Source of the DNA: a virus | Direction: 5' to 3' (one strand) | Length of the DNA: 15,593 nt | Virus genome (UHGV): UHGV-0078853 | In this document: positions 8,853 to 12,952 of the stretch, one piece after another | Layout: each line of letters begins with the position of its first letter | Numbering within the stretch: position 1 is the stretch's first letter | The notes under the pieces: model-generated | What the model was told of the DNA's origin: nothing | The model's database searches: none | What the model saw: only the letters and a program-made list of their open reading frames with translations | Made by a program: the position numbers and the translations under genes

Positions 8853-9102
8853 GCTTATGCCCTCCGTATGACAGCCACGCCTGGCGAATCTGGCGCAGCG
8901 CAACTAATGTGATTAATGTCTCAGGCAGCGTTGGTGACATGCTGCCCTGTAACAGGTGGATACATCCGGCAGCGCAGACGATAGCAGTCAGGATATAGTG
9001 CACCCGACCAAATAGCCCGTCATCCACGCTCGGATGGTATACATTAAACAGCGATGTGCCGCCGATTGCCAGCATACCGCCGAACCAGAATAACTCATTC
9101 AT
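8830..9102 (-). CDS. holin-like membrane protein (2 predicted TMDs, 90 aa)
   Basis: ATG 9102 with a GGAGG Shine-Dalgarno 5 nt upstream, overlapping the last codons of the upstream holin; two hydrophobic segments and a basic C-terminus. The track ORF (8830-9282) starts too far upstream. Confidence 0.55.
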   Translation of the reverse strand: MNELFWFGGMLAIGGTSLFNVYHPSVDDGLFGRVHYILTAIVCAAGCIHLLQGSMSPTLPETLITLVALRQIRQAWLSYGGHKRVSKHFR

Positions 9103-9403
9103 CTGTGCCTCCTCGACGCGCGATGTATTCTCCAGCGACGATACTGGAGAGACGGGAATAGATAGGCATCCAGAGAATAGCGATGATGAAGCCAAGGCCA
9201 GCGATTTCACGGTCGCCCGCGATACCGAACCATTGAGCCGCGAGAGGTGCGCCAAATACAGCGCAGGCGAAACCAGTAGCAATAAAGCAGAATCCGTCGA
9301 TAGGGCCAGAAATAACGGACTTATGTTGTCGTAGTCCGATGACCCCTCCGGCGAGCGCGGCGGCGAGAAGCCAGCCTGTCACTGTTTCAGTAAATTTATC
9401 CAA
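9095..9403 (-). CDS. holin (3 predicted TMDs, 102 aa), TTG start
   Basis: Three hydrophobic segments and a charged C-terminus (ARRGGTDE). The only in-frame start is TTG 9403, preceded by GGAGGA. First gene of the lysis cassette, upstream of the endolysin. Confidence 0.6.
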   Translation of the reverse strand: MDKFTETVTGWLLAAALAGGVIGLRQHKSVISGPIDGFCFIATGFACAVFGAPLAAQWFGIAGDREIAGLGFIIAILWMPIYSRLSSIVAGEYIARRGGTDE

Positions 9404-9410
9404 GATGAAT

Positions 9411-9446
9411 CCTCCAGGTGCGTATTAAGTACGCAGTAACTGGAGG
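9411..9446 (-). promoter_or_regulatory. interrupted hairpin sequestering the holin Shine-Dalgarno
   Basis: CCTCCAG (9411-9417) pairs with CTGGAGG (9440-9446), with an inner 6-bp stem 9419-9424/9430-9435. On the minus-strand mRNA the holin GGAGG lies in the 3' arm. Confidence 0.45.
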
Positions 9447-9478
9447 ATACCACGGGTAGGAATTATCTTAATAACGGT

Positions 9479-9772
9479 TTATTTATGCCGCCGGATGTAT
9501 TGTCGTCTCTGTGGTTTCGTCGGAATATCATCGTATCCCTGCGATTTCCAGTAATTAAATAACCGATTAGCGATAGCGGCGCGTTCTTGTGTTTTGAACT
9601 CACCGAGATTAACAGCCTTCCCGTTCTGGAATCCACAGGCGCGGATAGCTTTGCGTCTGGTCTGAATCTCCGGGTACAGCGCATTACGGCGGCGCTTGTA
9701 TATCTGTGTTTTAGCTCTCGGCGACAGCGGCGCAAGGCCGCTTCGTTTCAGGATGTCAGTTGCCAGGCTCAT
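9479..9772 (-). CDS. small basic DNA-binding protein, possible AP2-like domain
   Basis: Segment RKAIRACGFQNGKAVNLGEFKTQERAAIANRLFNYW resembles the AP2/ERF-type core (LG-F-T-EE-AA-A) seen in phage AP2 proteins; ATG 9772 overlaps the upstream stop as ATGA. Confidence 0.4.
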   Translation of the reverse strand: MSLATDILKRSGLAPLSPRAKTQIYKRRRNALYPEIQTRRKAIRACGFQNGKAVNLGEFKTQERAAIANRLFNYWKSQGYDDIPTKPQRRQYIRRHK

Positions 9773-9948
9773 AGGTCCAGAATCTCGCGCGCCAATTCAT
9801 CCGTCTTCCAGTCGCACGGACTGTTTACTACCTGCTTAGCAAGCTCACGCAGTTTACGTTCAAGCTCCGCGTAGTCTTCGTATAGGACCCAGCGCCCTTC
9901 CGCGCCCTGAAACATATCGCCGTGGTCGTTTTCGTATCTCTGCACCAT
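9769..9948 (-). CDS. hypothetical small protein, tandem paralog 2 (59 aa)
   Basis: Start ATG 9948 with a GGAG-type Shine-Dalgarno. N-terminus MVQRYENDHGDMFQGAEGRWVLYEDYAELERKL parallels the upstream gene. Confidence 0.5.
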   Translation of the reverse strand: MVQRYENDHGDMFQGAEGRWVLYEDYAELERKLRELAKQVVNSPCDWKTDELAREILDL

Positions 9949-10130
9949 CACTCCACCCCTTCCACATGTGTAACTGACCCACAGTTCGCGCACTCGATGT
10001 AATCCGGGAACTGGTCTTTGTATTTCTGTAACTCAGCTTCGAGTTTCGCGTAATCTTCGTAAAGCACTAACACGCCCTCAACATCAGGAGTAAACCCGAA
10101 TATCTGGTCGTAGGTATATCTCTGTACCAT
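9948..10130 (-). CDS. hypothetical small protein, tandem paralog 1 (60 aa)
   Basis: Start ATG 10130 with an AGGAGA Shine-Dalgarno 7 nt upstream. N-terminus MVQRYTYDQIFGFTPDVEGVLVLYEDYAKLEAEL; C-terminus has a CANCG motif. Confidence 0.5.
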   Translation of the reverse strand: MVQRYTYDQIFGFTPDVEGVLVLYEDYAKLEAELQKYKDQFPDYIECANCGSVTHVEGVE

Positions 10131-10132
10131 AA

Positions 10133-10336
10133 TCACTTCTCCTGATTGCCAAGTCGCTTAGGTGAGCAGATAGCGCGTACCTCCGAATCGTTGGGTTTGT
10201 CACCCTGAAACAGAAAGTGCGCGTTCTCTGCGGCGCGTGCCGCTGACTGGCACGCCTCCATCGAATAAAACGTTTCCGATGCCGCTAGTTGCATCTGGCC
10301 CGCCGACAGTACCCAGATAAATAAGATGCTGGTCAT
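10133..10336 (-). CDS. small membrane or secreted peptide (67 aa)
   Basis: ATG 10336 overlaps the upstream stop (TGATG). Hydrophobic N-terminus MTSILFIWVLSAGQMQLAAS followed by a short soluble region with two Cys. Confidence 0.4.
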   Translation of the reverse strand: MTSILFIWVLSAGQMQLAASETFYSMEACQSAARAAENAHFLFQGDKPNDSEVRAICSPKRLGNQEK

Positions 10337-10881
10337 CAGAAGTATTCCCCGCACGTTTTACATACTTTCGTACCGAACGGCGCGGAGCCACCTGTTATTA
10401 CATAATAGAAACTGTGTTTGCACTCCTGTGTACAGGCTGTTGCCCCATACTCAAGTCCGTCCCACTCACGCTTGCCGCATTCGCAGCAAAACCGGCTACC
10501 GGGCACGTTGTCCTTGTGGCCTTCGGCAATAAACAATCCTGGAGTGATAATCCAATTGTGGTCACATTCCTGCGTATCTTCTTTTCGGCAACCAGATTGC
10601 TCCGAACCGTACGCACCTTTGCGGATAAGTTTGTATGCCTCCACGTCACCAGTAGCCTCGACCAATGCCAGATGCAACTCCTTAACTTGCCCTGTCAGGT
10701 GCGATATGTGCTCAGATTTCTTAATGTTGTCTTCCCGCAACTCCTTAATCTGCGCCGACGCATCACGTAACTGATTCTTAAGTGACTGCACCTCATGCGC
10801 CAGGTCTTCGCTCCGGCTGTTATTTACCTGCTGCCGTAGCTGGTAGATCAGGTACTCGAATATTTCGTTTTTGTTACTCAT
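10336..10881 (-). CDS. coiled-coil protein with C-terminal Cys/His-rich (zinc-binding-like) domain (181 aa)
   Basis: Start ATG 10881 (MSNKNEIF...) with an AAGGGG Shine-Dalgarno. N-terminal half is heptad-like and charged; C-terminal half has CDHNW, CCECG, CTQECKH and CKTCG clusters. Confidence 0.6.
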   Translation of the reverse strand: MSNKNEIFEYLIYQLRQQVNNSRSEDLAHEVQSLKNQLRDASAQIKELREDNIKKSEHISHLTGQVKELHLALVEATGDVEAYKLIRKGAYGSEQSGCRKEDTQECDHNWIITPGLFIAEGHKDNVPGSRFCCECGKREWDGLEYGATACTQECKHSFYYVITGGSAPFGTKVCKTCGEYF

Positions 10882-11011
10882 CAGCTTCACCCCTTTTCTC
10901 ATCCACCCCGACTAGCAGCGATTTAGTGTCGCCGTCACACACCGAAGTGCTACTAATTATTTCGTAAGCGTCTACCAGTTCGCCTAAAGTCCAGCTACCG
11001 TACCGGCCCAT
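10874..11011 (-). CDS. hypothetical micro-protein (45 aa)
   Basis: ATG 11011 preceded by an AGGAG Shine-Dalgarno; its stop overlaps the start of the downstream gene; hand-translated. Confidence 0.3.
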   Translation of the reverse strand: MGRYGSWTLGELVDAYEIISSTSVCDGDTKSLLVGVDEKRGEADE

Positions 11012-12300: not shown

Positions 12301-12334
12301 AACCCTCACTCCTCTGTCTCGTTCCGATAAGTGA

Positions 12335-12363
12335 ATAGTATCCTATTATGTTGGGGCGTGCAA
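12335..12363 (-). promoter_or_regulatory. promoter proximal to the early-left operon, TTGCAC-N17-TACTAT (minus strand)
   Basis: Minus-strand -35 TTGCAC at 12363-12358 and -10 TACTAT at 12340-12335; dyad AATAG-N4-CTATT overlaps the -10. Confidence 0.5.
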
Positions 12364-12422
12364 GAGATTAGTTACGTTGCCGTTGTGATTCTTTCGTTTC
12401 TTAAAGGAGTACGCAACGCAGT

Positions 12423-12442
12423 GGGTGGGCGTTAGCCCACCC
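12423..12442. promoter_or_regulatory. stable GC hairpin GGGTGGGC-gtta-GCCCACCC in the early-left leader
   Basis: 8-bp perfect stem with no adjacent U-tract on either strand; lies between element B and the proximal promoter. Confidence 0.45.
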
Positions 12443-12483
12443 CAGCGGAGTGAAGTACTCTCTACCTCACTCACTCACGGCAA

Positions 12484-12680
12484 CTATAGAAACTTTTAAT
12501 TATCAGTGACTTGGGTATTTAGGCGGGATTAACAATAGACTTTGGCCCTTCCGAAAGCGCCAGCGGAACTACACTCAAGTGCCTAATGGCACGCGTTGCG
12601 TTCCCTGCCGCTCCGCGGTCGCTTGCGATATCTCACAAGCTCAGTGAAGCTTAGCATATTTTTAAGTAAAAGTCAATACT
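12484..12680 (-). repeat. copy B of the conserved promoter-leader element
   Basis: See 1216-1408; same blocks in the same order and orientation. Confidence 0.8.
12648..12676 (-). promoter_or_regulatory. putative promoter inside element B (TTGACT-N17-TAAGCT, minus strand)
   Basis: Minus-strand -35 at 12676-12671 and -10 at 12653-12648; identical architecture to the copy-A promoter. Confidence 0.4.
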
Positions 12681-12723
12681 AGTAGCATCTTTTGTATCTT
12701 AGTAACTTTGTGTGGTGTTTTGG

Positions 12724-12752
12724 TTGCTTTTACAAAGTTACCGCCTTATACT
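12724..12752 (+). promoter_or_regulatory. putative rightward promoter for the replication operon (TTGCTT-N17-TATACT)
   Basis: -35 at 12724-12729 and -10 at 12747-12752; AGGAGA Shine-Dalgarno and ATG 12782 lie downstream. Confidence 0.45.
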
Positions 12753-12781
12753 TAGGTACATCTTACATAGGAGAACGTGAA

Positions 12782-12952
12782 ATGACTATCAATGAAGTAG
12801 CTGAACGTATTGGGGTGACACGTCAGACAATTAATAACTGGATTAAGAGTGGAAAGTTTCCTGATTGCAGCGTTAAAGTAATGGGTCGCCGGATGCCGGG
12901 GACATTTGACCGTAATAAAGTTGAAGCGTGGATTAAGGAGAATGTGAAATGA
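12782..12952 (+). CDS. AlpA/excisionase-type helix-turn-helix DNA-binding protein (56 aa)
   Basis: MTINEVAERIGVTRQTINNWIKSGKFPDCSVKVMGRRMPGTFDRNKVEAWIKE matches the AlpA-family HTH pattern. Real start is ATG 12782 with AGGAGA, not the track start at 12692. Confidence 0.75.
   Translation: MTINEVAERIGVTRQTINNWIKSGKFPDCSVKVMGRRMPGTFDRNKVEAWIKENVK

Follow-up and report, generated by a model that had tools for sequence, protein, structure and literature searches.

Composition of genes A and B

Two adjacent small genes of the UHGV virus genome UHGV-0078853, hereafter A (9769..9948, minus strand; 59 amino acids plus stop) and B (9948..10130, minus strand; 60 amino acids plus stop), are, judging from their sequences, more aptly regarded as neighbouring mosaics put together from different pieces than as the products of a duplication in place followed by drift. 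The window, i.e. the whole stretch of 15,593 nucleotides that was analyzed, belongs to a virulent E. coli phage of the genus Kagunavirus (Guernseyvirinae), and the A/B locus is part of a long leftward operon of small genes. Each of these two genes of approximately 60 residues consists of at least three exchangeable pieces, with the joints at two conserved boxes, so that the pair documents mosaicism below the gene level and corrects a reading as duplication followed by divergence. Taken as a whole, it is probable, though by no means assured, that A and B are real, coupled genes composed of exchanged modules under purifying selection, and that their products form an oligomerizing scaffold with an accessory role in host interaction.

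The two adjacent genes reported in an initial annotation of this DNA were both retrieved on the minus strand, with the same coordinates and lengths. They encode acidic proteins (isoelectric points of 4.3 - 4.6), namely MVQRYTYDQ...ECANCGSVTHVEGVE for B and MVQRYENDHGD...SPCDWKTDELAREILDL for A. The TGA stop codon of B and the ATG start codon of A overlap by one base at position 9948, the stop codon of A overlaps the start of the downstream gene (ATGA), and B starts three bases past the stop codon of the preceding gene, which encodes 67 amino acids. Shine-Dalgarno-like sequences were found upstream of both genes (aggag for B and ggtggag for A), and the ribosome-binding site of A is contained in the last codons of B. 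No promoter or terminator was predicted within or between A and B. The gene overlaps and tight spacing, together with this absence of internal signals, indicate that A and B form part of a single operon and are translationally coupled.

A BLASTP alignment of the A and B proteins yielded 20 identities over 40 positions (residues 1-40; E = 7e-9 as a single comparison) and no similarity past residue 40. The shared N-terminus of about 35 residues mentioned in the initial annotation is thus slightly longer than proposed, and the similarity is significant and not confined to a few residues, in agreement with the PHROG profiles. At the DNA level, similarity was limited to two islands, one covering the start codon and the MVQRY codons (repeat D2; 9923-9948 versus 10105-10130; 77%) and one covering the VLYEDYA(E/K)LE box (repeat D1; 9859-9888 versus 10038-10067; 80%). 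The common start DNA noted before was recovered as tatctctgcaccat at 9935-9948 and tatctctgtaccat at 10117-10130, the sole difference being a synonymous valine codon (GTG/GTA). Likewise, the C-termini differ as described, the last approximately 20 residues of A and B being unalignable, and the CANCG motif occurs at residues 47-51 of B. A profile hidden Markov model of the shared N-terminal module (N-module) retrieved only A and B among the open reading frames of the window (E of approximately 1e-19 each), the next open reading frame having an E-value of 2.8. Phage G AB-2017 encodes a protein 98% identical to B, and phage Bas70 one that is 95% identical to A.

Among catalogued families, B matched phrog_29624 over its full length (residues 1-60 on profile positions 1-60; E = 2.4e-45), to which A was similar over residues 1-40 only (E = 9.8e-6). 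A was assigned to phrog_37174 by a full-length match, in which its residues 4-57 align with positions 13-67 of the 69-position profile (E = 7.5e-9). These two nearest catalogued entities are automatic clusters without a described function or architecture. Because they divide the family according to its C-terminal module (C-module), they obscure both the N-module that its members have in common and the combinatorial make-up of the family.

Modular architecture and module exchange

Genes similar to A were found by tblastn in at least 47 phage records and genes similar to B in at least 101, their products ranging from about 57 to more than 90 residues; in a large protein collection, A returned 46 clusters and B 392. 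The family, which consists of small acidic proteins of Guernseyvirinae phages, has a common architecture, namely, in this order, a near-invariant MVQRY start, a variable cassette of approximately 10 - 30 residues, a conserved (W/Y/F)VxYEDYAxLE junction, in some members a helical (coiled-coil) insert of 15 - 35 residues, and a short C-module, of which several mutually unrelated kinds exist. In B, the MVQRY start (codons 1-5; 10116..10130, minus strand, as are all pieces below) is a conserved 5' box within repeat D2, followed by a cassette of type N02 (codons 6-21, TYDQIFGFTPDVEGVL; 10068..10115), a junction box located in repeat D1 (codons 22-31, VLYEDYAKLE; 10038..10067), and a B-type C-module with a single CxxC motif (codons 32-60, AELQKYKDQFPDYIECANCGSVTHVEGVE; 9951..10037), which was near-invariant in 25 aligned homologues. 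In A, the corresponding pieces are the MVQRY box in the other copy of repeat D2, with synonymous codon variation (codons 1-5; 9934..9948), a cassette of type N01 (codons 6-20, ENDHGDMFQGAEGRW; 9889..9933), the junction box in the other copy of repeat D1 (codons 21-30, VLYEDYAELE; 9859..9888), and an A1-type C-module (codons 31-59, RKLRELAKQVVNSPCDWKTDELAREILDL; 9772..9858), predicted by AlphaFold2 (AF2) to form a helix-turn-helix.

Classification of 218 family proteins resulted in 36 cassette clusters and at least nine C-module classes, with extensive cross-combination. The cassette present in A (N01) was found joined to modules A1, A2, B, B with insert, C, and E, the cassette present in B (N02) to A1, A2, B, B with a zinc-ribbon (Zn) extension, and B with insert, and cassette N07 to A1, B, D, E, and F. 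Conversely, the B-type C-module (AELQKYKDQFPDYVECANCGSVTHVEGVE) is nearly invariant and is preceded by many unrelated cassettes. The window itself holds the combinations N02 with B (gene B) and N01 with A1 (gene A). Further arrangements comprised an in-frame fusion in which a B-type protein runs on into an A-type C-module (L043), a C-type module ending with the B tail (L040), a B tail fused to a member of the family of the 188-amino-acid protein encoded upstream (L018), and a truncated remnant of 41 residues (L039). The zinc-ribbon extension of B-type proteins, found in L045, L047, P0047, P0048, and others, is a module shared with the family of this 188-amino-acid protein.

For a segment search, the window pair was split into four sub-segments, each of which was sought in 74 loci taken from GenBank and IMG/VR. 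The B cassette was present in four of them (L004, L012, L044, and L016; 89 - 100% DNA identity), the B box plus C-module in 18 (97 - 99% for the best four), the A cassette in L002, L006/L024, L011, and L020 (93 - 98%), and the A box plus C-module, and hence its A1-type module, in L001, L002, and L020 only (94 - 96%). None of the 74 loci contained all four segments together, although each segment had a match of 93 - 100% DNA identity in one locus or another. The breakpoints were sharp. Up to position 10116, the last base of the MVQRY codons of B, the sequence of phage fKuEco01 shows 97% identity with that of the window; it continues with an unrelated cassette and is again 92.8% identical from position 9900, just before the junction box of A, indicating that it has one gene where the window has two. 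Phage G AB-2017 and locus L044 possess B at 94 - 96% DNA identity and lack A entirely, and phage RP180 carries a single gene with the A cassette (91% DNA identity) on a B-type C-module. Cassettes and C-modules have been exchanged among phages, with the joints at the two conserved boxes.

The locus was highly polymorphic in copy number as well, related phages carrying 0, 1, or 2 family genes. Among 63 IMG/VR loci fetched, so as to avoid bias, via the downstream 97-amino-acid neighbour, the 38 with a neighbour at least 78% identical were counted; 10 of these had no intact family gene, 16 had one, and 12 had two. In the two-copy loci surveyed, the gene in the first slot has a B-type tail (HVEGVE), the last codons of which form the ribosome-binding site of the second gene. 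Two tandem copies with two conserved boxes would be substrates for unequal recombination and for recombination between phages, and selection would retain only those recombinants in which the joint falls between domains. Mosaic accessory genes of this kind are well known in phage genomics. An origin of the cassettes from a diversity-generating retroelement was rejected, the cassettes being discrete types of differing length, unlike adenine-directed point changes. A second copy of either cassette was not found within 9400-10500, where the only repeats were the two boxes, a reverse transcriptase not having been sought elsewhere in the window.

Coding potential and selection

Among 65 distinct family genes, the valine at position 2 was encoded by GTA, GTT, GTG, or GTC and the arginine at position 4 by AGA, CGA, CGC, AGG, CGT, or CGG; similarly, both tyrosine codons and, in the junction box, five leucine codons were used. 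The proportion of synonymous differences (pS) in the junction box was 0.74 and that of nonsynonymous differences (pN) 0.09 (19 distinct genes). Pooled Nei-Gojobori-style counts gave pN/pS ratios of 0.11 for the B C-module (n = 28), 0.18 for the A1 C-module, 0.26 for the A2 C-module, 0.29 for cassette N01, and 0.19 for cassette N08, with 0.12 and 0.04 for the neighbouring genes encoding 67 and 97 amino acids, respectively. For cassette N02, the ratio was 0.86, which is uninformative as it is based on only three sequences. The synonymous codon variation together with the low pN/pS values indicates that the family genes encode real proteins under purifying selection. Diversifying pressure, as suggested in the initial annotation, was therefore not seen at the level of point mutations, the ratios of 0.11 - 0.29 within modules being those of purifying selection. 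Family diversity comes from whole-module replacement, whereas point substitution is not accelerated. Selection may favour diversity in which modules a phage carries.

These data bear directly on the initial view that A and B arose by a classical tandem duplication in place, after which the copies diverged point by point under positive selection. Indeed, the genes are adjacent, of equal size, and 50% identical over their 40 N-terminal residues, the cassettes of the family are very diverse, and the ratio for cassette N02, from its three sequences, is high. Nevertheless, the C-terminal regions of about 20 residues cannot be aligned, other phages combine these cassettes and C-modules differently, and the four sub-segments of the pair differ in their distribution over the 74 loci. 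Moreover, the breakpoints fall sharply at the end of MVQRY and just before the YEDYA box, and the well-sampled modules evolve under constraint (pN/pS of 0.11 - 0.29). Hence, the paralogy of A and B stands through their common N-module, whereas local duplication followed by divergence is contradicted by the distinct C-modules, the differing module distributions, and the sharp breakpoints; the latter scenario, largely refuted by the table of cassette and C-module combinations, is improbable.

Occurrence of the N-module beyond Kagunavirus

A 38-position profile of the N-module, run against 1.84 billion cluster representatives, retrieved 480 protein clusters (at 50% identity) with E <= 0.001, 12 of which had E <= 1e-10. 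The figure of 480 is an upper bound, as at least one match is probably a false positive. The entry concerned, P0245, is a 194-amino-acid 'protein' with four repeats of MVQRYKFESKSQ amid low-complexity sequence, probably a translated repeat element. The characteristics of distant relatives were obtained from the 143 newly returned representatives among 150 matches listed. Of the 149 occurrences of the N-module in these, 134 began at one of the first three residues; the proteins were 39 to 356 residues long (median of 81), and 98.6% were acidic, with a median net charge of -7. In the longer relatives, the N-module is followed by long heptad-like, coiled-coil-like helices and by C-terminal modules that lack a Pfam family and have matches solely among PHROGs without an assigned function. 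Seven representatives (P0170, P0174, P0193, P0201, P0204, P0234, and P0280) carry the N-module twice within a single chain, the second copy retaining an M/V-V-K-R-Y start in P0193 and P0201. From their sequences, these chains look like fusions of tandem genes. Their occurrence in other phage groups, such as Wifcevirus-type myoviruses, indicates that the tandem arrangement of N-modules recurs outside Kagunavirus.

Searches with tblastn also revealed examples of the N-module in Wifcevirus-type myoviruses and other coliphages. In Enterobacter phage SDFMU_EhYP (Koutsourovirus, T7-like; L010), a gene at 1501-1719 encodes a 72-amino-acid N-module protein (MVKRYENDYGDMMEDADGYFVKYEDYEALQ) with a cassette close to that of A. 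This gene is situated in the early region, where the genes for a DNA cytosine methyltransferase and for the RNA polymerase follow closely downstream. Its sequence suggests that the N-module and its cassette may have spread horizontally between unrelated phage families. Enterobacterial phages of the sipho-, myo-, and T7-like types encode hundreds of small acidic proteins that begin with the N-module.

The N-terminal module is not catalogued in Pfam and is without a solved structure. Indeed, searches of PDB sequences with three profiles gave chance matches only (E >= 0.014), and a Pfam scan of 142 distant relatives revealed no shared domain. Scanning representative bacterial genomes for the box pattern yielded 43 matches, none of which was confirmed, although this is a weak negative given the narrowness of the pattern, and a blastn search of 5,426 complete E. 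coli genomes with the A/B pair gave no match. No papers were found with the peptide motifs in a literature search, and the supplements of a paper on an accessory-gene screen did not contain them.

Predicted structure and proposed role

Structure models were made with AF2 using family alignments. The model of A (mean predicted local distance difference test score, pLDDT, of 73) consists of a hairpin (residues 12-22), a helix starting from the YEDY box (residues 23-41), and a second helix (residues 47-56), both helices of this C-terminal part having a pLDDT of 85 - 89. The model of B (mean pLDDT of 64) likewise shows a hairpin (residues 5-15) and a helix from the YEDY box (residues 24-40), followed by a small hairpin around the CxxC motif. 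The conserved positions in the family alignments are mostly aromatic or aliphatic, and these residues may build a small scaffold of a beta-hairpin and a helix that would oligomerize via the helix or a coiled coil. On such a scaffold, the variable cassette and the C-module would be displayed as the surfaces that bind and carry the specificity, and A and B together would give the phage two specificities.

In this proposal, A and B would be dispensable, probably early host-interaction factors, involved in host takeover or counter-defence. This role is suggested by their small size and acidity, their position in a small-gene operon running from the control region, the early-region relative in a T7-like phage, the presence/absence polymorphism, and the modular exchange. 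That A and B are dispensable host-interaction proteins on an oligomerizing hairpin-helix scaffold is proposed with low confidence. If the proteins prove to be host-interaction or counter-defence factors, the table of cassettes by C-modules constitutes a ready map of specificity variants. A more far-reaching and rather doubtful idea is that MVQRY...(W/Y/F)VxYEDYAxLE represents an undescribed, widespread oligomerizing display domain, in which swappable cassettes and C-modules set the specificity of counter-defence or host-takeover proteins and tandem copies could form mixed oligomers. If so, mixed oligomers of A and B would multiply the number of specificities.

Several observations weigh against the explanation by exchanged modules on an oligomerizing scaffold. 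First, the sample of loci is somewhat redundant between GenBank and IMG/VR (L006, for instance, equals L024). Second, family members share only modest DNA identity in the junction box (pS of 0.74), which implies that homologous recombination at the boxes could explain exchanges between close relatives only; many older joints may be rare illegitimate events kept by selection at the domain boundary. Third, the confidence of the AF2 models is moderate (mean pLDDT of 73 and 64), the models differ on the residues forming the hairpin, and residues 1-7 of A are below a pLDDT of 50. In addition, no significant fold match and no solved relative were found, and scans of A, B, and their neighbours against Pfam, NCBIfam, and PADLOC gave nothing above threshold. 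Finally, the timing of expression rests on gene order.

Comparison with known systems

The T-even internal-protein locus encodes tandem small proteins that share only an N-terminal packaging leader, each of them blocking one GmrSD-type restriction enzyme (PMC12373910). The proteins Ip1, Ip2, and Ip3 and their relatives are described there as a polymorphic accessory locus (PMC12373910, citing Repoila et al. 1994). The A/B locus resembles it in layout only, being a small, tandem, polymorphic accessory locus with a conserved N-terminal segment. It differs in that this segment, a predicted fold of 35 - 45 residues with an internal variable cassette, is unlike a short cleaved leader, and in that its host phage is a siphovirus. 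It could nonetheless be supposed that the N-module is a targeting signal of the T-even capsid type, by which small proteins otherwise unrelated to each other would enter the virion, to be injected as anti-restriction factors. The position of the module at the first three residues of nearly all proteins, the unrelated bodies behind it, the smallness and acidity of these proteins, and the tandem polymorphic locus are in keeping with this idea. It is quite unlikely all the same, because a module of this length with a predicted fold and an internal cassette is unlike a leader of about 10 residues, the module occurs across unrelated head-assembly systems (sipho-, myo-, and T7-like), the locus lies in a small-gene operon upstream of the lysis genes and not among head genes, and fused proteins contain internal second copies of the module. 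The N-module is not known to be similar to the T4 leader.

A further comparison concerns the Lar restriction-alleviation proteins. Lar_restr_allev (PF14354) is a four-ligand zinc ribbon within one chain. B resembles it in having a CxxC knuckle after a helix and in giving profile matches below threshold, without being a member. One reading takes B for a Lar-like restriction-alleviation protein with a zinc ribbon and A for a degenerate relative. The CxxC region of B matched PF14354 (E = 0.14) and the 'Lar-like' phrog_3592 (E = 0.052) weakly, the N-terminal part of phrog_3592 also matched the N-module in distant relatives, and extended B-type proteins bear an added zinc-ribbon module. The score of B was 12.8 bits, however, compared with a gathering score of 28.6 for PF14354, A did not match at all, and the overlap with phrog_3592 falls in the N-module and not in the Lar domain. 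In addition, B contains only two cysteines (C47 and C50), so that one chain is unable to form a four-ligand ribbon, and A has a single cysteine (C45). This reading is accordingly very unlikely.

As to other mosaic proteins, the domain-boundary mosaicism of the A/B family is reminiscent of the Ead/Ea22- and EaE-like coiled-coil proteins of ea/nin-type accessory regions in enterobacterial phages. Indeed, distant N-module proteins share coiled coils and C-terminal modules with P22-like and other enterobacterial phages, and one tblastn match fell under a gene annotated as 'EaE protein'. Unlike those proteins, A and B are much shorter and the N-module lies outside the Pfam model. Neither A nor B matched PF13935 (Ead_Ea22) at E <= 1, and one of the 142 distant relatives did so weakly (E = 7.7e-4). 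None of the anti-phage defence profiles of PADLOC-DB matched A, B, or the small gene on either side of the pair.

A last possibility is that the conserved boxes act as signals in the DNA or RNA, for ribosome loading or recombination, and that the open reading frames do not encode functional proteins. It would fit the observations that A and B are similar mainly within two short islands of DNA, one of which lies at the translation start, and that the last B codons serve as ribosome-binding site of A. It was nevertheless rejected on codon evidence and has next to no likelihood, given the abundant synonymous changes at conserved residues (pS of 0.74 against pN of 0.09 in the box), the intact reading frames in hundreds of genomes, the retention of the module in phage groups that are unrelated and differ in their flanking DNA, and the lack of an Rfam match.

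Source phage and neighbouring genes

Megablast matches of the whole window and of the region 9400-10500 were with Guernseyvirinae phages, the closest being the E. coli Kagunavirus isolates P AB-2017, ULINTec2, HSE2, and G AB-2017 (approximately 91 - 95% identity in many separate pieces). In fKuEco01, the equivalent region is a long same-strand run of small genes annotated as 'hypothetical protein', flanked by a divergent control region and by holin and endolysin genes; past the latter, further small genes precede the small terminase gene. The gene layout deduced from PHROG scans of the open reading frames of the window agrees with that of fKuEco01, the operon running from a divergent control region near 12.3 - 12.7 kb towards the lysis genes. 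The leftward small-gene array ends at 12309, and a gap of approximately 380 bases (12310-12690) separates it from the rightward genes, the first of which (12692-12952) encodes a helix-turn-helix/excisionase-like protein. The gap is presumably a divergent early control region. A simple sigma-70 scan of 12310-12690 found no strong promoter, and no Rfam family was detected anywhere in the window.

Two conserved genes flank the pair. The downstream neighbour (9479..9772, minus strand; 97 amino acids; phrog_9632) was matched in 42 of the 74 loci and served as the anchor for the locus survey. An HslV-family peptidase gene (approximately 145 amino acids) lies between the gene for this 97-amino-acid protein and the holin gene in K-01, G AB-2017, Snoke, RP180, and ST521 (loci L003, L004, L005, L006, and L008). 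In the window, the holin gene (9095-9403) follows the 97-amino-acid gene after about 75 bases (gap 9403-9479), indicating that the peptidase gene is absent from it. The upstream neighbour (10133..10336, minus strand; 67 amino acids; phrog_3766) defines slot 1 of the locus and was matched in 48 of the 74 loci. It is located directly upstream of the variable slot and encodes a protein with a hydrophobic, signal-peptide-like N-terminus (MTSILFIWVLSAGQMQLAA) and two cysteines, which, to judge from this N-terminus, may be exported.

Further upstream, a protein of 188 amino acids (10336-10902, minus strand) has a coiled coil at its N-terminus and two Cys/His-rich repeats in tandem, one with CRKEDTQECDHNW...CCECG and the other with CTQECKHSFYYV...CKTCG. 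Related proteins are 101 to 223 amino acids long, with repeats differing in number and kind. This family swaps pieces with the B-type genes, as exemplified by the C-terminus of the protein in L018 (CDNCGSVTHVEGVE) and by the presence of its zinc-ribbon module after the B tail in L045 and P0047.

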